Source: Octopus vulgaris
Taxonomy: Eukaryota
DNA length: 64,000 nt
NCBI GenBank assembly: GCA_951406725.2
Contig: OX597819.1
Span: 99,324,001 to 99,388,000, forward strand
Direction: 5' to 3'
Both the position numbers and the translations under genes were made by a program. Numbering within the stretch: the first letter of the stretch is position 1; each line of letters starts with the position of its first letter. Of this stretch, positions 4,695 through 59,913 are shown in pieces. A model generated the notes under the pieces. It saw nothing but the letters and a program-made list of their open reading frames with translations, ran no database searches and had not been told where the DNA came from.

Positions 4695-5970
4695 CGAGGG
4701 GCGTTCAATAAGTAATGCCTCTGACCCACTTCCCATAGCAGTAGAGCAACGAAACTTGGCACAGTTATTGGTCTTTTCCTACATAGGAACCACCCAGAGT
4801 TACGCATTTCTCCCATTGTGTGATGCAGCTCTGGAGACCGTTTTTGTAGAAGACCCCAGCTTGGTCCTCCAACCTGAACGTGACTTCAGAAATCAAGGCT
4901 GCATCATCTGGGAAACGCTTTCCTTTAAAAAACAACTTCATGACTGGGAAGAGGTGAAAATCAGAGGGTGCAAGGTCAGGAAAGTAGGGGGATGGGGATG
5001 AGTTCATAGCCATACGCCTGTGCTTCTGATCTGGCGACAAGCGAGTTGTGGACCGGAGCGTTGTCCTGCAGGAGGAGGATGCCTTTGCTGATCTTGCCCC
5101 GCCTCTTGATTTTGATAACTTCTCTTAATTTCTTCAAAAGTGAAGCATAATAGGCTCCTGCAATTGTGGTACCCTTTGCCTGGAAATCTGTCATCACTAC
5201 TCCGTCCTGGTCCCAGAAGACTGTGAGCATGACCTTGCCAGCGGAGGGCTGCACCCTTGCCTTCTTTGGAGGGGGTGAGTCACGGTGCTTCCACTGCATT
5301 GACTGGGCTTTGGTCTCTGGATCATCGTGATGGACCCAGGTTTCATCCTGTGTAATCAGTCTTTTGAAAAATGTTGACTTATCTTCTTGGCACATCTCCA
5401 AATTCACCCTCGAGCACTCGACGCGTTCTTGCTTCTGGAAAGGCGTGAGCAACCTGGGAATCTATCTAGCAGACACCTTTTGCATATGCAAATGGTCATG
5501 AATGATAGTTTCCACAGACCCGGTGCTAATCTTGACCTCATGGGCTATTTGGCGAATAATTATGCGTCGATCTTCCAAAATGGCAGCCTCAACTTGACGG
5601 ACAGATGCCTCATCAATGGCAGAAGGGGCGACCAGATCTGGGAGCTGTTTCCACAGAGTTCCGACCATGTTTGAATTCACGATGCCAGCGTTTTACAAGG
5701 TCATATGATGGGGCATCATCACCATAAGTTACTTTCATTTCATCAAAAGTCTCCCGTGGTGTGCGTCCTTTCAAATACAAAAACCGGATCACTGCTCGAC
5801 ACTCAACAGGCTCCATTTCACACTTGACTCGGTTCAAACACCTGTAAATCAGAAACCACAATTAATTCAGAATTATAATTATAGAGATATAAATGATTGC
5901 ACATGCAAAATTTCAGCTAGATCAAACAACTGCAAGTGGGTCAGGGGCATTACTTATTGAACGTCCCTCG
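4695..5970 (-). mobile_element. Full-length (1276 bp) mariner transposon with an inactivated transposase
   Basis: TIRs CGAGGG(G/A)CGTTCAATAAGTAATGCC(T/C)CTGACCCACTT; TA duplications at 4693-4694 and 5971-5972. Confidence 0.95.
4765..5816 (-). pseudogene. Mariner D,D34D transposase pseudogene
   Basis: MEPVECRAVIRFL...RSGRP; SAR*IPR (W to stop); ITQDETWV; LLQDNAPVH; PYFPDLAPSDFHLF; two frameshifts and one nonsense codon. Confidence 0.92.
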
Positions 5971-6817
5971 TATATGTGTTTGTAAGTCCTGGTGTTTTTG
6001 TTATGTATTTGTCTGAATATTTTTTTATCATGCCTAATGCACCTACTATGATAGGAATTGTTTCTGTTTTTAGATTCCACATTCTGGTTACCTCTATTCC
6101 CAGGTCTTTGTATTTTGAGAGTTTCTCCATTTCTTTTAGAGACACGTTTTCATCAGCCGGTATTGATACATCAATTAGAAAGCATTTTTTTTCTTCGTGA
6201 TCTTTGACAACTATATCTGGTCTGTTGGCCTTAATTTCTCTATCTGTGTGTATCGGCATATCCCAGAGTATGGTTGCTTTCTCGTTTTCTGTGACATTTT
6301 CTGGTGTGTGCCTATACCATCTTTTTTCTGTTGTTATTCCATAATGTTGGTATAGCTTCCAATGTATGTAAGTTCCAACTCTGTCATGTCTATGAATATA
6401 TTCCTTCTTAGCCAGGACTGGGCAGCTAGAGATAATATGATTTATTGTTTCTTGTCCATCTCCACATATTCTGCAGTTACTTGTTATATTTCTTTTCATT
6501 ACATGTTTTTGGTAATTTCTGGTGGGGAGGCTTTGGTCTTGTGCTGCAATTAAAAATCCCTCTGTTTCTGCTTTGAGTCCTGAGCTTCTCAACCATTGCT
6601 GGGATTTTTCTTTGTCTATTTCTATTGCGTTTAGTTTAGTCCAGTATTTACCATGAAGGGGCTTTTCTTGCGATCGTTTTATCATGGTTCGTTGCTGTTC
6701 TATTTTTAGTTTGGATTTCATTTGTTTTATAGCTTTTCTTCTTCTTCTTCTTCTTCTTCTTCTTCTTCTTCTTCTTCTTCTTCTTCTTCTTCTTCTTCTT
6801 CTTCTTCTTCTTCTTCA

Positions 6818-6862
<45 letters not shown>

Positions 6863-6952
6863 TCTGAGCTTTTGGTCTTACTTGCTTTGGTTGATTCAGT
6901 GAGACCGGACAGCAACCAGTTGTCAATATTATTATTATTATTATTATTATTA

Positions 6953-7518
6953 AGTCAATGATTCCTATGGTGTTCTCTACAAGACTGACAAGGTGAATTA
7001 AGTTTCTTAACCCTCGGCGACGGAGTAGTGGGTCACTGAGCAAGATTAATCATATTTGAAATCATCGATTATATGACTCCTCTTGCTTACCGTAGGGAAC
7101 TTGTCTCCCTTGTCAGTAGTAAGATAAGTTCTCTCACGTGGCTAAGAGTTGTTTTGACTCTTATTTCTAGCAATGTTGGTGCTTACTACCATCCTCAGTC
7201 ACTTTGGTTATAATTTGCGAATTTCCACTTTAATAATTTATAACTCTCATTTCACCATTTTCGAAATCAGTCAGTTTGCTATGGTGTTTTCTACAAGGCT
7301 GACAAGGTGATCTAAATTTTTAACCCTCGAGAACGGAGTAATGAGTCATTAATGAAGACTAATCAAATCTGAAATTATCGATGATATAACTCCTTCTCGC
7401 TTGCCGTAGAGAGCTTCTCTTCCTTGTCAGTCGTTAGATAAGCGCTCTCACGTGGCTAAGGGTTGTTTTGACTCTTATCTATGCCAATGCTGCTGCTGAC
7501 TAGCACCCTCAGTCACTT
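6953..7518 (+). repeat. Diverged tandem dimer, period 313 bp, each unit with a decayed type I hammerhead (old retrozyme-like element)
   Basis: Units ~6953-7205 and ~7269-7518 align; hammerhead relics at 7030-7079 and 7343-7392. Confidence 0.8.
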
Positions 7519-7556
7519 TAATGACGACTATACTACTACATGTATATATATATATA

Positions 7557-7622
<66 letters not shown>

Positions 7623-25201: not shown

Positions 25202-25532
25202 CGGAGATGTACTCGCATAGCAAGTAATTTGATCTGAGATCGTGTGCTGAAACGAAAACAATTGCAGCGTGGAAGGTGTTTATAAGCCATTTAAGAAACA
25301 CACAAAAGCCGTTCGATTCACTTCAACATTTAAGTTTAATTTGTCAAAATATTTTCGTCGCTAAAATCCGCGACCTGTTCACTGACAAGAGATGCAGCAG
25401 GGGTTTTTGTCAGTGAACAGGTCGCGGATTTTAGCGACGAAAATATTTTGACAAATTAAACTTAAATGTTGAAGTGAATCGAACGGCTTTTGTGTGTTTC
25501 TTAAATGGCTTATAAACACCTTCCACGCTGCA

Positions 25533-25537
<5 letters not shown>
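25200..25537. mobile_element. Perfect 131-bp inverted repeat with an 18-nt spacer, inserted in (TA)n; Penelope-type or retrozyme-like
   Basis: 25258-25388 is the reverse complement of 25407-25537; (TA)n on both sides. Confidence 0.9.
25406..25455 (+). ncRNA. Minimal type I hammerhead, G3-C8 variant; mirror copy on the minus strand at ~25340-25388
   Basis: TTTGTCA-GTGAACA-G-GTCGC[GGATTTTA]GCGAC-GAAA-ATAT-TT-TGACAAA. Confidence 0.65.
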
Positions 25538-26902: not shown

Positions 26903-27419
26903 ATATATATGAATATATGAATATATATATATATATATATATAAATACATATACTTTTATACACACACACACACCCACACACATATATATCGATTCAGTC
27001 ATTAGACTGTGGTCATGCTGGGACATCAACCTGAAGAATCTTAGTCGAAGGAATGGCCTCCCGTACTTACATCATCGGGTTTGTTTTGCCGGACCGCTAG
27101 CTTACGGAGACGTAAACACACCGACACCGGTTGTCAAACAGTGGTAGCGGACAAACACACACACACATACATACACAGCTGGCTAAGCCATGAATAAGAA
27201 GCTTCTCATTCAATTTAAAAACTTCCTGAGACTGGAACTCTTGAACTCCATCCCAAACCGAAATAGACACAACATTTGTAAGAGAATGACTAAAGCAAAA
27301 TTTCCGTAAGAACTCTAATATGGGTACAAACTGTTAAACCCCGCCAAAAATGTTTTTCTCTCCCTGATTCTTTTTAATATATCTAATATTTGGTAAGCTT
27401 GATACATCGAAACTGGTTA

Positions 27420-27772
27420 TACTTTGGAGTAAAGATTATTTGCCAACATAACATAGCAATCCTGGTTTAGAACGATTGTTACTGTAATTTAACTCCAGGG
27501 GACATCGTCTCCAGCTGGCTATACGACACGATCTGTGTCCTTTATATTTTTGAACAAGGGAATCTAGCTTCGCCACGCAACTCAAACAATACACAGATAT
27601 TGATTTGAGCTGAGTTGAGGTGCTAGATTCCCTTGTCCGAAAATATAAAGGACACAGATCGTGTCGTATAGTCAGCTGGTGACGATGTCTCATGGGACTA
27701 AAATTACAGCAACATTCGTCCTAAACCAGGACTGCCATGTTATGTTGGCAAACAATCTTTCTTCCAAAGTAT
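27420..27772. repeat. Imperfect fold-back element (~150-bp arms), MITE-like
   Basis: ATACTTTGG..TTTGCCAACATAACAT..TATACGACACGATCTGTGTCCTTTATATTTT..CAAGGGAATCTAGC mirrored downstream. Confidence 0.85.
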
Positions 27773-31346: not shown

Positions 31347-31403
<57 letters not shown>

Positions 31404-31522
31404 CAATCAAGGAACGGCCATAATAGGCCATTCACCCACTAGAAATAACAGCCAAAGCTTCAACCGCAAAATAACATTAATTCCGCAAACCAGGAGAAAA
31501 TTAAAAAAACATTTACCCTGTA

Positions 31523-31629
31523 ATTTCTTATACGATGCACCGTTTCATCTATTGTTTAATGGTAAACTAACCTGATTAAATTAAATCAAGCCAATCTTCC
31601 ATAGGCCCTTAGATTCGTCAGTAAGAAAT
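31523..31629 (-). ncRNA. Type I hammerhead ribozyme, copy 1
   Basis: Minus strand ATTTCTTA-CTGACGA-ATCTA...TAGAT-GAAA-CGGTGCATCG-TA-TAAGAAAT. Confidence 0.85.
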
Positions 31630-32012
31630 AGCCAGATCGGAACAGATATTTTCACGAGGCACTTCTGTCCCTGCCTCGGCAATATCTGACCTAAAATTTT
31701 CAAATCATCGCACTCGCGCCAAATTTATCGGCAGCAAATAAATATAAGCCGCCGATTCCATTACGGAATCAACCAGAAAATTCATAATTAATCAATATAG
31801 GGTGGCAAAAAAAATTTTGTAGAATTTTTTTGCCACCAGCGGCCTAGTGGGAAAAAATTAAATAGTCATAGACCATTTATAAGTTCAACATCACAATCAA
31901 GGAACGGCCATAATAGGCCATTCACCCACTAGAAATAACAGCCAAAGCTTCAACCGCAAAATAACATTAATTCCGCAAACCAGGAGAAAATTAAAAAAAC
32001 ATTTACCCTGTA

Positions 32013-32119
32013 ATTTCTTATACGATGCACCGTTTCATCTATTGTTTAATGGTAAACTAACCTGATTAAATTAAATCAAGCCAATCTTCCATAGGCCCTT
32101 AGATTCGTCAGTAAGAAAT
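32013..32119 (-). ncRNA. Type I hammerhead ribozyme, copy 2
   Basis: Identical to copy 1, 490 bp away. Confidence 0.85.
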
Positions 32120-32892
32120 AGCCAGATCGGAACAGATATTTTCACGAGGCACTTCTGTCCCTGCCTCGGCAATATCTGACCTAAAATTTTCAAATCATCG
32201 CACTCGCGCCAAATTTATCGGCAGCAAATAAATATAAGCCGCCGATTCCATTACGGAATCAACCAGAAAATTCATAATTAATCAATATAGGGTGGCAAAA
32301 AAATTTTGTAGAATTTTTTTGCCACCAGCGGCCTAGTGGGAAAAAATTAAATAGTCATAGACCATTTATAAGTTCAACATCACAATCAAGGAACGACCAT
32401 AATAGGCCATTCACCCACTAGAAATAACAGCCAAAGCTTCAACCGCAAAATAACATTAATTCCGCAAACCAGGAGAAAATTAAAAAAACATTTACCCTGT
32501 AATTTCTTATACGATGCACCGTTTCATCTATTGTTTAATGGTAAACTAACCTGGTTAATGTTATTTTGCGGTTGAAGCTTTGGCTGTTATTTCTAGTGGG
32601 TGAATGGCCTATTATGGCCGTTCCTTGATTGTGATGTTGAACTTATAAATGGTCTATGACTATTTAATTTTTTCCCACTAGGCGCTGGTGGCAAAAAAAT
32701 TCTACAAAATTTTTTTGCCACCTATATTGATTAATTATGAATTTTCTGGTTAATTCCGTAATGGAATCGGCGGCTTATATTTATTTGCTGCCGATAAATT
32801 TGGCGCGAGTGCGATGATTTGAAAATTTTAGGTCAGATATTGCCGAGGCAGGGACAGAAGTGCCTCGTGAAAATATCTGTTCCGATCTGGCT

Positions 32893-32999
32893 ATTTCTTA
32901 CTGACGAATCTATCGGCCTATGGAAGATTGGCTTGATTTAATTTAATCAGGTTAGTTTACCATTAAACAATAGATGAAACGGTGCATCGTATAAGAAAT
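32893..32999 (+). ncRNA. Type I hammerhead ribozyme, copy 3; predicted cleavage after GUA at 32991
   Basis: Stem I ATTTCTTA/TAAGAAAT; core CTGACGA 32901-32907; stem II ATCTAT/ATAGAT; GAAA 32976-32979; stem III ACGGT-GC-ATCGT. Confidence 0.88.
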
Positions 33000-33382
33000 T
33001 ACAGGGTAAATGTTTTTTTAATTTTCTCCTGGTTTGCGGAATTAATGTTATTTTGCGGTTGAAGCTTTGGCTGTTATTTCTAGTGGGTGAATGGCCTATT
33101 ATGGCCGTTCCTTGATTGTGATGTTGAACTTATAAATGGTCTATGACTATTTAATTTTTCCCACTAGGCCGCTGGTGGCAAAAAAATTCTACAAAATTTT
33201 TTTGCCACCCTATATTGATTAATTATGAATTTTCTGGTTGATTCCGTAATGGAATCTGCGGCTTATATTTATTTGCTGCCGATAAATTTGGCGCGAGTGC
33301 GATGATTTGAAAATTTTAGGTCAGATATTGCCGAGGCAGGGACAGAAGTGCCTCGTGAAAATATCTGTTCCGATCTGGCTGT

Positions 33383-33487
33383 TTTCTTACTGACGAATCT
33401 ATCGGCCTATGGAAGATTGGCTTGATTTAATTTAATCAGGTTGGTTTACCATTAAACAATAGATGAAACGGTGCATCGTATAAGAAA
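33383..33487 (+). ncRNA. Type I hammerhead ribozyme, copy 4; predicted cleavage after 33480
   Basis: CTGACGA 33390-33396; GAAA 33465-33468; stem I TTTCTTA/TAAGAAA. Confidence 0.85.
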
Positions 33488-35001
33488 TTACAGGGTAAAT
33501 GTTTTTTTAATTTTCTCCTGGTTTGCGGAATTAATGTTATTTTGCGGTTGAAGCTTTGGCTGTTATTTCTAGTGGGTGAATGGCCTATTATGGCCGTTCC
33601 TTGATTGTGATGTTGAACTTATAAATGGTCTATGACTATTTAATTTTTTCCTACTAGGCCGCTGGTGGCAAAAAAATTCTACAAAATTTTTTTTTGCCAC
33701 CCTATATTGATTAATTATATATATATACATATATACGACGGTCTTCTTTCAGTTTCCGTCTACCAAATCCACTCACAAGACCTTGGTCGACCCGAGACTA
33801 TAGTAGAAGACACTTGTCCCAGGTGCCACGCAGTGGGATTGAACCCGGAACCATGTGGTTGGTAAACAAGCTACTTACCACACAGCCACTCCTGCGCCTA
33901 CCCGTATATAATTTTGGCAGAAGGGCTGCAATTTTGAAGGGATTTCGACGTCGATTACTTCGATCACAGTATTTAATCTATTTTGGATTTTTCGACACTT
34001 AAAATACGTAAGGCAACATCAAGCACAACTAAACTTTTTGTCCGGCTCGGTCTAACATATAATGAGTGGGCGGTTTCAATTTAAAGTACTGTGTGAAGAT
34101 TTAAAATCTGTGACATATATTTGGGTGTGTCATTTACCCCTCGTCCATGTTCATATTAATAAAATGCTGAACTCTGACTGCACAGGTCGCATTATTTCGA
34201 ACAGTTAACGCTGAATATAATAACTATACTGCGTAGATAGTTTATGCGTGACAAACATACGCACCTTGCCCTTTGTGACGTATGCATGCGCACACGCGCA
34301 CACAGCACATACACATAAGTGTATCTATGTAGATGTGTATACATACATAAACATGCTCACACATAAGTATAAGCATTAAGCGCAAAAGTTGCGAAACAAA
34401 AACAACAACAACACAATTTGACGCACAGAAAATTTTTAAAAAAATGACAAGATATCTTTTTAACAAATCGTGCATTCGTTTTTCTTCCGAAAGATAGGAC
34501 AGGCAGAGAGAATAAAACGAGGAGGGAAACGGGGAAATTGAAACGCAAATATATCCAGTGGTCACAGTATGGTGAAAAATATGAAGATACACATACACAC
34601 ACACAAAACACACGCGCACATTTACATATGCATGAATTTATAGATAGAGAAACTCATTGACATATAGATATGTTTCTTTATTAGCCACACAGGGCTGCAC
34701 ACAGACGGGGCAAATTACAAGGTAGAGCTTTTCTTTTTGGGGATAAAAAAAGGGGGTTTGGTTTTCGATCAAAAGGGATCGTAAAAGGAAAGAAAGAGGA
34801 AAGCAAAAAAAAAAAAAAAAGAAAGGTGGGGGAATAAAAGGAAAAAGAAAATATCGATCAATAGGGATCGTTATCACAGAAATGTCAATATAAAGTGTAA
34901 AGGGGAGGACAGGTGAGGTTTGACATATAGATAACTCTTTCGACAGATAGATACAACAGCAAAGAAATACTCTTTAGTAATGAAAACTGGCCTCTGAGAA
35001 G

Positions 35002-42017: not shown

Positions 42018-42117
42018 NNNNNNNNNNNNNNNNNNNNNNNNNNNNNNNNNNNNNNNNNNNNNNNNNNNNNNNNNNNNNNNNNNNNNNNNNNNNNNNNNNN
42101 NNNNNNNNNNNNNNNNN
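42018..42117. other. Assembly gap (100 N)
   Basis: Run of N. Confidence 1.
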
Positions 42118-49287: not shown

Positions 49288-51400
49288 AACTGGTCAACAA
49301 AATGAAACTTTTTTTAATCATCAGAGTTGCTAATTGACATTTTTGGGTTAATTTTTGATGCTCATTACAAATCTGAAGTCCGATTTCCTCTATCAGGTCA
49401 CATTTTCATGTTAATGATACCTACTGTTTTAACTTAAAGGATAAGTAAAGCATATCTATATAAAGTATACAAGATACGATAATTTCATGGCTTTTTATTG
49501 TACAAAATTAAAATTATTGTGTCCAAATAAGTTAGAATACACTTAAATGCATAACAACTAAAAATATTTGGGATTTGGACTTTCTATGATGTTTTGTCTC
49601 AGGTTCATCCCTGTATAACATCCAACAGTAGTCAGCTAACATTCCTGCATTCCAAAATCCTTGATATCGTTGTTCATCGATGCAATATCTTGATGAAAGC
49701 GTTTCCCTTGCTCATCAGACACTGCTCCAAGGTTCTCTGCAAAAAAGTACAGATGTGAATCAAGGAAATGGACTTTTAGTGACATCCAACAGCCCATTGC
49801 AACGTAGGAGTCTAGAAGACATTTCACTCCATTTCTAAACTCTAGAGATCTCTTGTTGCCTAGGAAATTTTCACACAGCCATTTGAAGGATTCTCAGGCT
49901 TTAAGCTAAATCTCATCCAGTGCTGTAAGGAAGTGGTTGTCCTTCTGGAGTTCTTTTATCTGTGGACCTAGGAATACGCCCTCCTTCAGTTTTGCCTCGG
50001 TGATTTTTGGAAATTTGGCCTTCACATATTCGAAACCTTTTGAGCTTTTCCTGGCAAGTGTCTTCACAAATTGTTTCATGAGGCCACGCTTTATGTGAAG
50101 AGGGGAAAGAAGAAGATTTTCTGGGTTTAAAAGTGGCTTACTCTGGACGTTAGAAACTCCTGGCTCATATGATTTTCGCAAAGGCCACTCTGATTGCACA
50201 TAGTGCTTGTTAGTTGCACGACTGTCCCATAGGCATAAAAAGCAACAACATTTGGTGAACCCAGATTGCATTCCCATCAACATCCCAATCACCTTCAAGT
50301 TTCCACATGTTTTCCAGCTGTAGTTTGTATACTTTATGGCATTGAGGAGTACTTGCATGTTTTCATAACACTCATTCATGTTCACTGAATGTCTTATGCG
50401 AATGGATGGTTTCTTATTGCCGTTGTGTAGTAGTACTGCCTTGAGGCTTCTCTTAGATCAATCAATGAATAAGCGCCATTCAGCTGGAACATGCTCTTGG
50501 AACAAACAGCGAAATAACTCATCTGTGTTATTACTGAAACAAAGTGGTCCTTCAACAGAAAAGCATGAAGACAGATCCCTACTTCTCTTCCAGAAATGTG
50601 TAATACAAACATCTTTCTTAAGCAGACACTTTTCTTGTAGGCGAGTTCAGCTTTATCCTTCGACAATGACAAGTCTCTAACTAAATCATTTAACTCCCCT
50701 TGAGAAAATTTCTGTGGTACGTCTTCATTTTCAATCGTGAAATCTGTATCCACTTCGATCTCTTCCACAGCAGTAGTATTTTCTTCGGGAAATACATCTT
50801 CATCAGACAACTGAAGGCTATTTTCTGGTGGTATTGGAATAAGAAGATCATCATCGTTATGTGGTACTGGTTCTATTGCTGATTCCAAGTTGGGATACAC
50901 AATCTTATGCTTGGTCTTTACAGTAAACCCACATACATTATTAACGTTGTAGAAATAACAGTCCATGAAATGATCCTTTGGCTCTCTCCATATCATAAGT
51001 ATTGCAAACGGCATTGTGCTCTTCCTCTTATTTAGCCAATCCCTTAATCCATTTGAACAAACTGAGCAGATGAAGTGTGGGACCCAACTCTTATCTTGAT
51101 CCCCGAGAAAGCAGCCAAAATATAACTGGTGGATCTTCTTGATTTCACTTTTGATGGTAAATGAACCACAGACATAACAAAATATATCAGGACTGTTCTT
51201 GAAATGCCTTGAGATAGAATTTACCTGTACAAGACGTTTACGTGTAGCGATACTGCTGATGGGAGTTATATACCTCTCTGATCTCATCAGAAAAACTGTG
51301 CCTGAAAGAAGGAAACCGATTATATTTTTGAAATCTGCAGACAAAACTACATATAAAACACCATATAATATCCCTGATGAAAATTGGCTGTTGACCTGTG
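49288..51400 (-). mobile_element. Chapaev(3)-like (CMC) DNA transposon with a frameshifted transposase, intronic
   Basis: FCYVCG, GDQDKSWVPHFIC, WREPKDH..CYF, SQGELNDLVRDL, CCFLCLWDSRA, PLHIK.GLMKQFVK, MSLKVHFLDSHL, SDEQG.RFHQDI; terminal repeats AACTGGTCAACA / TGTTGACCTGTG. Superfamily assigned from recalled motifs. Confidence 0.8.
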
Positions 51401-52714
51401 TTATCTATTGTGTTGGTTGTTTTTCTATTGTCACAATTATTTTGTTATACTTTTAGGCATTTCATTGTATTGAACCATTTAGACATTTTATTGCATTGAA
51501 AACTGATCTGCCATTCAGTAATACAATAACAATAGTTGAAGCCCTGAACAGTCAGATAAGAGAAGAGTCATTACATCCACTAAGTCAAATAGGAAACTAA
51601 TGGTTGGAATATTGAGAGAAATTAATGCTTGTCATTTCATTCAGTCTCAGCTCAAGTAGAAAACCATAAATATGAGACGATAATACGTTAATGTTCATTT
51701 ATTTGTTTGTTTGTTTGTGTGTGTGTATGTGTGTGTGCGTATAGATACATGTTCTGTATACTGACAAAGGAGACAAAAGCTCCCCACGTCAAGTAAGGTT
51801 ACATGAGACACCTGCATTGATATAAATAAGAGTCGAAAATACTCTAAAAAGCCACTATGTTACTGAAAGAACAGCAGGCTTATCAGAATATTTTTCGACT
51901 CTTATTCACGCACACATGTGGAGGCGCAATGGCAGCATTTGAACTAAGAAGAACGAAATGCTGCAAAAATATTTTGCCCGGCGTGCTAACGATACTGTCA
52001 ACTCGCCGTCTTATTCCAATTAAAGAATCGATTATTTGCAGGAATTATTGTAGTTGGAAATATCCGACACCTGACACATGCCCTAAAATTCTAATCTCCC
52101 AGTTAGATTCTGGCTCCACATAAATGGGTATGTTTATCGCTGAATATACATAACAGAGACAGGAATATTTTGTGACAAGTTATAATATTTTAATTTTTAG
52201 CCAGGAGGAAAGGCTGCGTCCCTTTACAGTTACTACAAAGCGTGTGGGACGAGCAAAGAAAAGAAAGTATCTTAGAAACTTTGACCTGTCCCGAATGATT
52301 ACAAGAGGGTCGATTCTGAAAAATGCCCCACTCGGAATGCAACGACGAGGTATAAGTACCGTACCACAAGGCATCTAATCCAATACTCTTACATTTCTGC
52401 TAATCACAAAGAAGAAAAAACTAAGTTAATCCTGACGGATTTTGTGCACAGAGAATCACTGCAGATAACGCAAAGGATTTTATCTACGCGCTGAGCGGCC
52501 TGCCAATACACTATCTGAGCATCTAAAATTAAGAGTCCCATTCACGGTTCAAAAAGTAGCATGGCTATGTTGTTTAGAAGCTCACTTTGTAAACACGAGC
52601 TTAAGGGTTCAGCCACACTGTACAACACACTGGGCGTATCTTTTGCTATAGACCAATAACTTGTGAGCAATTTTGGCACATGGGAACTGTGAAAGTCCAT
52701 TCTGTGTGTGTGGC

Positions 52715-59410: not shown

Positions 59411-59445
59411 GTTTTACGTTTCGAGCAAAGCTCTTCTTCAGAAAC
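59411..59445 (-). ncRNA. Minimal type I hammerhead within a Penelope-like fragment
   Basis: GTTT-CTGAAGA-A-GAGC[TTT]GCTC-GAAA-CG-TA-AAAC. Confidence 0.65.
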
Positions 59446-59913
59446 AAGACGGAAAAAATCGCCAACGCTTCACAAGTGGTTACATTTTGAAACAAAAAAT
59501 ATATGTTTTAAATATTTTTTAAAGTCAAAACAAGTTATAAAATAGTAAAATGTAATCCGATGATTAGTATTCATATCTAGTATTTCAATATTTAAGAGGT
59601 GACAGCGATCGATATATTTCTCATGTAGATTTTCTGAAGAAGAGGTCTTAGCTTTGAAATAGTTTAAATACCATATAATAGAACTAAACACCGACCCAAA
59701 TTATTCATGTTTTATAACTTGTATTGTTTTCGTTTTAAAAAAATACGATAATATACGTTATTTCATTATGAACACTATATCAAAGTAAAATTACTCTTAT
59801 ATTTAATGAATAAATCAACTTCAGTGAAGCATTGGATTGAAAACCAGTCCGAAATTATTATAAATTCTCTAAAAATTGTCGTTCTAATAATAATGTTACG
59901 TTTTAATCAACAG

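Follow-up and report, generated by a model that had tools for sequence, protein, structure and literature searches.

A 64,000-nucleotide stretch of Octopus vulgaris DNA (contig OX597819.1 of assembly GCA_951406725.2), referred to here as the window, contains a mutated, head-to-tail pair of repeats that is probably an inserted, now dead, animal non-LTR retrozyme. The pair amounts to approximately 1.8 copies of a non-coding, many-copy unit of approximately 340 bp, and the majority sequence of the family has a complete type I hammerhead motif. The locus is a decayed dimer of an apparently undescribed family within a known class.

The two copies (Table 1) share homologous blocks of 244 bp each (6962–7205 and 7276–7519), spaced 313–314 bp apart. 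In an alignment of 245 columns, the blocks are 82.4% identical, with two single-base gaps and 41 substitutions—that is, 25 transitions and 16 transversions, with a K2P distance of 0.19. Unit 1 begins approximately 120 nt upstream of its predicted cut site. The GC contents of the two copies are 38% and 41%, and the longest open frame in the dimer, over all six frames, has 57 codons. Both flanks are microsatellites, with no target-site duplication of more than 2 nt found around the dimer, and a window-wide similarity search found no further full copy within the 64 kb. On the left, the TAT microsatellite joins the dimer to a non-LTR retrotransposon fragment (5954–6926, minus strand) containing a zf-RVT domain, which we take to be R4/Dong-like. 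The named relatives of this fragment come from marine invertebrates (52–63% identity), its two closest matches being 90% and 77% identical, and a mariner-type transposase fragment (4976–5461) adjoins it.

Table 1. Positions of the dimer, its parts, and its flanks within the 64-kb window.
Feature	Positions	Strand	Details	Basis
Left flank, (TAT)n microsatellite	6927–6952		beside opposite-strand non-LTR retrotransposon fragment	
Unit 1	6953–7268	+	approximately 26 nt absent after 7205 relative to family members	alignment, contig loose ends, joints
Rod extending helix I	6985–7116	+	9-bp arms 6985–6993/7108–7116; copy 2 arms 7299–7307/7422–7430	
Type I hammerhead, copy 1	7030–7079	+	helix I 7030–7035/7074–7079; core 7036–7042; helix II 7043–7047/7053–7057; GAAA 7058–7061; helix III 7061–7072; predicted cut after 7073	sequence, descriptor, family letters
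Hairpin-bearing 45-nt segment	7139–7183	+	stem-loop approximately 7144–7162; copy 2 at 7453–7497	folds, contig depth
AT-rich stretch	7206–7268	+	only in copy 1 at this locus, yet belongs to the family unit	contig depth, joints from 7268
Unit 2, partial (approximately 0.8 unit)	7269–7537	+	ends in TA microsatellite; right end approximately 7534–7537	alignment, contigs
Type I hammerhead, copy 2	7343–7392	+	core 7349–7355; GAAA 7371–7374; predicted cut after 7386	
Right flank, (TA)n microsatellite	7543–7621			

The strings quoted in the original prediction are present letter for letter at 7030–7079 and 7343–7392, 313 bp apart. Neither copy alone fits a strict type I descriptor. The claim that the two copies in combination rebuild a hammerhead nevertheless proved correct: reading either letter at each position gave a strict match, with 6 bp in helix I, 5 bp in helix II, and a count of 4 for helix III. 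Among 5000 column shuffles, three matched a loose descriptor and none yielded an equally good hammerhead. The copies differ at 11 positions of the 50-nt motif, two of these differences being neutral (N7, and a G-U versus an A-U pair in helix I) and nine damaging the core or stems, namely three core changes, four broken pairs, and two Watson–Crick pairs turned into G-U. In copy 1, the damage consists of the loss of G8 (7041), two broken pairs, and one G-C pair that is now G-U; in copy 2, it consists of the loss of C3 (7349) and G5 (7351), two broken pairs, and one C-G pair that is now U-G. Core bases other than C3, G5, and G8 are identical between the copies, the majority letters being those seen in the 40 of 100 variant rows listed. 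Thus, with G8 lost from copy 1 and C3 and G5 from copy 2, neither copy is predicted to cut. The C3U and G5A changes presumably disable copy 2, judging from what is known of the conserved core, and copy 1 is predicted to be dead because a G8C change has been reported to abolish hammerhead cleavage (PMC11167929).

Helix III extends 3 bp past A15.1–U16.1 and ends in a UCGA loop. In the family majority, the 12-nt segment of helix III is perfectly palindromic, as had been expected of this stem, whereas each copy is palindromic at 10/12. Both copies close the base of helix II with A-U (7043/7057 in copy 1, 7356/7370 in copy 2) rather than G10.1–C11.1, an agreement from which A-U would appear to be the family state. 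An internal loop follows helix I. A focused Rfam search returned no hammerhead match on either decayed copy, and three unrelated matches with E values of 4–9; over the whole window, Rfam gave low-complexity noise in the 150 of 237 matches listed.

The letters of the wider family were taken from contigs of two sequencing runs, X1 from organism A and X9 from organism D, with at least 80% likeness to 6953–7530, in a contig comparison covering 4 of 24 runs. In total, 1752 (X1) and 1452 (X9) contigs aligned on the stretch, and the many-copy family is present in both organisms. All 11 motif differences are among the 40 of 100 variant positions listed. In X1 and X9 alike, most relatives have the canonical letter at every one of the nine damaging sites: G8 is restored for copy 1 and C3 and G5 for copy 2, giving CUGAUGA as the majority core, and the six damaged stem positions are likewise restored. 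The original prediction was to be refuted if a multi-copy consensus lacked the core or the stems; the majority letters, among the positions listed, retain both. The A that it placed at the second stem position needs correction, as most of the family has G at 7344 (248/339 depth units, X1), making a G-U pair in the majority helix I. In X1, the majority letter accounted for 731/763 depth units at 7349 (C), 678/763 at 7351 (G), 434/469 at 7041 (G), 1300/1333 at 7359 (T), and 1193/1267 at 7388 (G), the weakest site being 7070 (G, 142/206), with the majority letter carried at each damaged motif site by 8–30 contigs in X1 and 5–31 in X9. As to the 41 substitutions between the blocks, the listed rows place 10 changes in copy 1, 21 in copy 2, and one in both, with nine lying outside these rows; at 7125/7439, both copies depart from the majority at the same site.

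The median agreement among the relatives was 0.94 at the nine functional sites, compared with 0.80 at 22 others, with one-sided p values of 0.010 (pooled), 0.004 (X1), and 0.043 (X9). This depth-weighted comparison used 38 of the 40 listed rows, two beside an indel having been dropped, and then set aside seven with a depth below 200; it covers, among the rows listed, only sites mutated at the dimer locus. Higher agreement at ribozyme sites is no more than suggestive of selection for the hammerhead motif while the family diversified. Given the approximately 94% per-site agreement, intact family copies may exist at other loci. The term "fossil" is therefore supported for the dimer locus alone, where both copies are damaged, since at every site tested most relatives keep the canonical letter. 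In X1, contigs of the dimer locus itself have a depth of 16–18, and the summed motif depth is approximately 100 times higher—a ratio that does not amount to a copy number—with most motif contigs at approximately 1–3 times single-copy depth. In a run guessed to be RNA (X22), 75 contigs covered 18 of 29 bins and neither core, a blank that is uninformative on expression.

The contigs also bear on the length of the unit. Loose ends after 7205, found in 69 (X1) and 71 (X9) contigs, start like the tail of copy 2 (7520–7534), and loose ends of the same type rejoin copy 1 at 7206 after approximately 26 letters; for this reason, copy 1 has likely suffered a deletion of approximately 26 nt. Furthermore, the depth over 7206–7268 (540–1,580 in X1 and X9) is comparable to that of the remaining unit. 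On this sequence evidence, the family unit is likely approximately 340 bp, with 313 bp as the local spacing only. The original description of a 313-bp dimer therefore stands with respect to two head-to-tail copies and their spacing at the locus, but not with respect to the family unit, whose length makes the locus approximately 1.8 units. Joints from 7268–7274 to 6953–6959 occur in four X1 and six X9 contigs, among the 15 of 100 joints listed. At other loci, units therefore run on directly from end to start, although these joints do not give array length.

Beyond the hammerhead, the surrounding sequence is strongly self-paired. The outer 9-bp arms are unchanged between the copies, and the 150-nt regions that they enclose fold as rods with z scores of −4.8 (copy 1) and −3.8 (copy 2), none of 200 shuffles being as stable in either case; the proposal that outer pairings extend stem I into a long rod thus agrees with the folds. 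Further self-pairing folds of the dimer sequence gave z scores of −2.7 and −3.0. The cut-to-cut monomer (7074–7386), which is mutated and bears the deletion, folded no better than its shuffles (z −0.86). RNAalifold did not return the hammerhead fold from the two copies, with 3 of 56 pairs changed on both sides, two damaged sequences being too few for this purpose. A pairing of 7022–7036 with 7179–7194 that would block the ribozyme was set aside, as it is seen in copy 1 only.

A second structural element, the 45-nt segment with its hairpin retained in both copies, behaves differently from the ribozyme in depth. Summed contig depth at 7153–7172 was 87,346 (X1) and 71,522 (X9), compared with 150–1,500 over the hammerheads, such that the hairpin segment is 50–100 times deeper than the ribozyme part in both runs. 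Loose ends around the segment are heterogeneous (agreement approximately 0.5–0.6) and partly resemble the adjoining sequence of the unit, in register. The segment also matches, with two differences, one contig of run X20 (organism E), the only contig from that run, and it has no exact match in the prokaryote genomes and viral contigs searched. The likeliest explanation is that the segment belongs to a far larger set of sister repeats that have diverged or been truncated. A rather unlikely one is that it is a signal common to the retrozyme and to an autonomous Penelope-like partner, or to a sister family that lacks the ribozyme and numbers thousands of copies. Animal retrozymes are described (PMC7761336) as having no conserved motif that indicates a mobilising partner. 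If the shared-signal explanation were true, the segment would be such a motif, reportedly lacking in animal retrozymes, and would name the enzyme mobilising an invertebrate retrozyme; it would also be accompanied by a variant hammerhead that could act as a monomer or dimer by virtue of a fully palindromic helix III of 4 bp. Elsewhere in the window, a long hairpin on the minus strand (51753–51920; 185 nt folded, −64.5 kcal/mol) has arms resembling 7139–7183 and is followed, in swapped order, by a piece like 7083–7125 (nhmmer E approximately 0.002 each); it may be an ancient remnant of the same superfamily that has since been rearranged.

The cycle that would have produced the dimer is modeled on that of known retrozymes, from which cleavage, circularisation, retrotransposition, and the partner are all borrowed. 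Tandem units would be transcribed by read-through, and the transcript would cleave itself after AUA (7073 and 7386) once per unit, yielding a monomer of approximately 340 nt to be circularised by a host ligase, as described for other retrozymes (PMC7229834). Reverse transcription of the circle would then go beyond one full turn, using a borrowed enzyme whose most likely source is a Penelope-like element. The product would be inserted into AT-rich microsatellite DNA, after which the copies would have decayed separately, by approximately 10% each on average. Both the start of the dimer 120 nt upstream of the cut and its length of 1.8 units fit this cycle; a later truncation would look alike. A Penelope-like donor is plausible because the window contains four minimal hammerheads of Penelope type and because a purified Penelope-like protein has been reported to prefer AT-rich targets (PMC11167929).

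Alternatively, the unit might have been the pLTR, or terminal repeat, in an autonomous Penelope-like element; the dimer would then be a frame-less remnant, and the family would never have moved as free circular RNA. The partial-tandem layout, microsatellite flanks, and lack of a target-site duplication would fit Penelope-type insertions as described (bioRxiv 2021.04.23.441226; PMC11167929), the 45-nt segment is common to a far more abundant family, and Xenopus retrozymes are reported to resemble Penelope-like termini (bioRxiv 10.64898/2026.07.22.740005). This origin is nevertheless unlikely: contigs at other loci, in two organisms, pass directly from unit end to unit start, and helices I–III are all complete in the motif, in contrast to the minimal hammerheads reported for most animal Penelope elements (PMC4209133), which moreover occur separately in the window. 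The nearest long frames, too, belong to the zf-RVT retrotransposon and the mariner transposase. A pLTR origin of retrozymes is itself a published model, and is compatible with reading the dimer as a retrozyme.

Spread of the family as a DNA satellite by unequal crossover and local duplication, with the hammerhead as a passive leftover from its origin, appears still less probable, and indeed quite improbable. The greater agreement at ribozyme sites suggests selection for the motif, the 1.8-mer is isolated within 64 kb, and the near-single-copy depth of the motif contigs is that expected for many distinct copies, not for a homogenised array. These observations must be set against the fact that an old local duplication would explain the two copies equally well, the shared departure from the majority at 7125/7439, and a report of in vitro cleavage in only one of nine predicted Xenopus dimers (bioRxiv 10.64898/2026.07.22.740005). 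That the hammerhead is a chance likeness, created by choosing letters across two diverged copies of a hairpin repeat, might be suspected from the damage to both copies and the blank in Rfam; with no shuffle as good, and with the relatives of two organisms carrying the canonical letter at every damaging site, this suspicion is refuted, as far as sequence comparison can do so, and its probability is negligible.

The original prediction had regarded the dimer as belonging to an older, second retrozyme family. Within the window this was not upheld, as the hammerheads found there apart from the dimer are minimal ones of Penelope type that have no tandem partners. These are single and dispersed, at 59441 (minus strand), 29664 (plus), 26771 (plus), and 25809 (minus), with a weaker one at 59634 (plus); that at 59441 has an intact core and shares 100 bp with 29664 at 81% identity. 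A 489-bp tandem array (31398–33718), approximately 98% identical and arranged as an inverted repeat of approximately 2.2 kb centred near 32500, was considered as a possible "first" retrozyme and set aside, its only descriptor matches having a mismatched core. Other features of the window include broken cysteine-rich frames without a Pfam match (49906–51404, minus strand), probably a DNA-transposon relic; two long, near-perfect palindromes (25258–25537, 280 bp; 27419–27772, 354 bp); and an assembly gap of 100 N (42018–42117).

Corals, mussels, insects, and amphibians are already known to have retrozymes. The non-LTR type has been described as a short, many-copy, non-coding unit that is arranged head to tail and has a type I hammerhead and a GC content below 45%, and its units measure 350–390 bp in Mytilus and 330 or 350 bp in the axolotl (PMC7229834). 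Every feature of the dimer that gave a clear test result conforms to this class, of which it is likely a member: the unit is head-to-tail, within 150–450 bp, many-copy, non-coding, below 45–50% GC, and self-paired as RNA, and the type I hammerhead is complete in the family majority, with both local copies damaged. Hammerhead type, layout, copy number, GC content, and rod are shared with the metazoan non-LTR retrozymes described in PMC7229834, which, like the Octopus window, also co-occur with Penelope-type minimal hammerheads; such co-occurrence is likewise described in bioRxiv 10.64898/2026.07.22.740005. Compared with their descriptions, the dimer differs in its longer, palindromic helix III, in a helix II closed by A-U, and in the core damage to both of its copies. 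The canonical type I form has the core CUGANGA, GAAA, and UH, approximately 6 bp in helix I, approximately 4 bp in helix II, and a short helix III with a palindromic loop; the family majority agrees with this, in the variant rows listed, with its 6-bp helix I and 5-bp helix II, its helix III being longer than typical. A typical hammerhead is reported to have a helix III of 1–2 bp and a helix II closed by G10.1–C11.1 (PMC4209133), and the axolotl motif has a U-U mismatch at the helix II base (PMC7229834); the helix III length and A-U closure represent variation within a class that is known to be species-specific.

The dimer layout, short arrays, and decayed derivatives reported for vertebrate non-LTR retrozymes derived from Penelope pLTRs are also similar, as is the unit length, which averages 313–363 bp in that group, although the dimer lacks the two consecutive complete motifs by which "active" retrozymes are defined there (bioRxiv 10.64898/2026.07.22.740005). 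The same survey, whose main text mentions no mollusc or cephalopod, reports that 24 of 57 Xenopus retrozyme families show terminal similarity to 22 known repeats, of which 21 are Penelope-like. With the minimal hammerheads of Penelope elements, the dimer motif shares a type I topology and a palindromic helix III sequence; these are described as having no stable helix III, a short helix I, and G10.1–C11.1 (PMC4209133), unlike the 6-, 5-, and 4-bp helices and long rod of the dimer, and window-wide searches found no similarity between the four minimal hammerheads and the dimer unit. Newt satellite 2 and Schistosoma SM-alpha are likewise type I repeats of approximately 330 bp, in which a palindromic helix III permits a dimeric fold (PMC7229834; PMC6155905). 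The newt motifs, with a one-pair helix III, are reported to require a dimer, whereas for the Octopus motif a stable monomer is predicted too.

With respect to cephalopods, the literature searched yielded no description of a retrozyme, and the supplements of retrozyme papers could still list the family. A repeat annotation of Octopus vulgaris (PMC13282606) does not mention hammerhead, retrozyme, or ribozyme, and 235 Rfam hammerhead hits have been counted in the giant squid (PMC6962438). Metagenome matches to a core-plus-helix-III pattern (76 loci) were rejected as chance, having no helices I or II and no likeness outside the pattern. Because both copies are damaged, motif scans would miss the retrozyme at this locus; such relics can, however, be read from complementary damage between copies. 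Overall, the dimer adds to the known class a retrozyme family common to at least two organisms, and the single lead of broader interest is its over-represented hairpin segment, through which the mobilising element could be identified.
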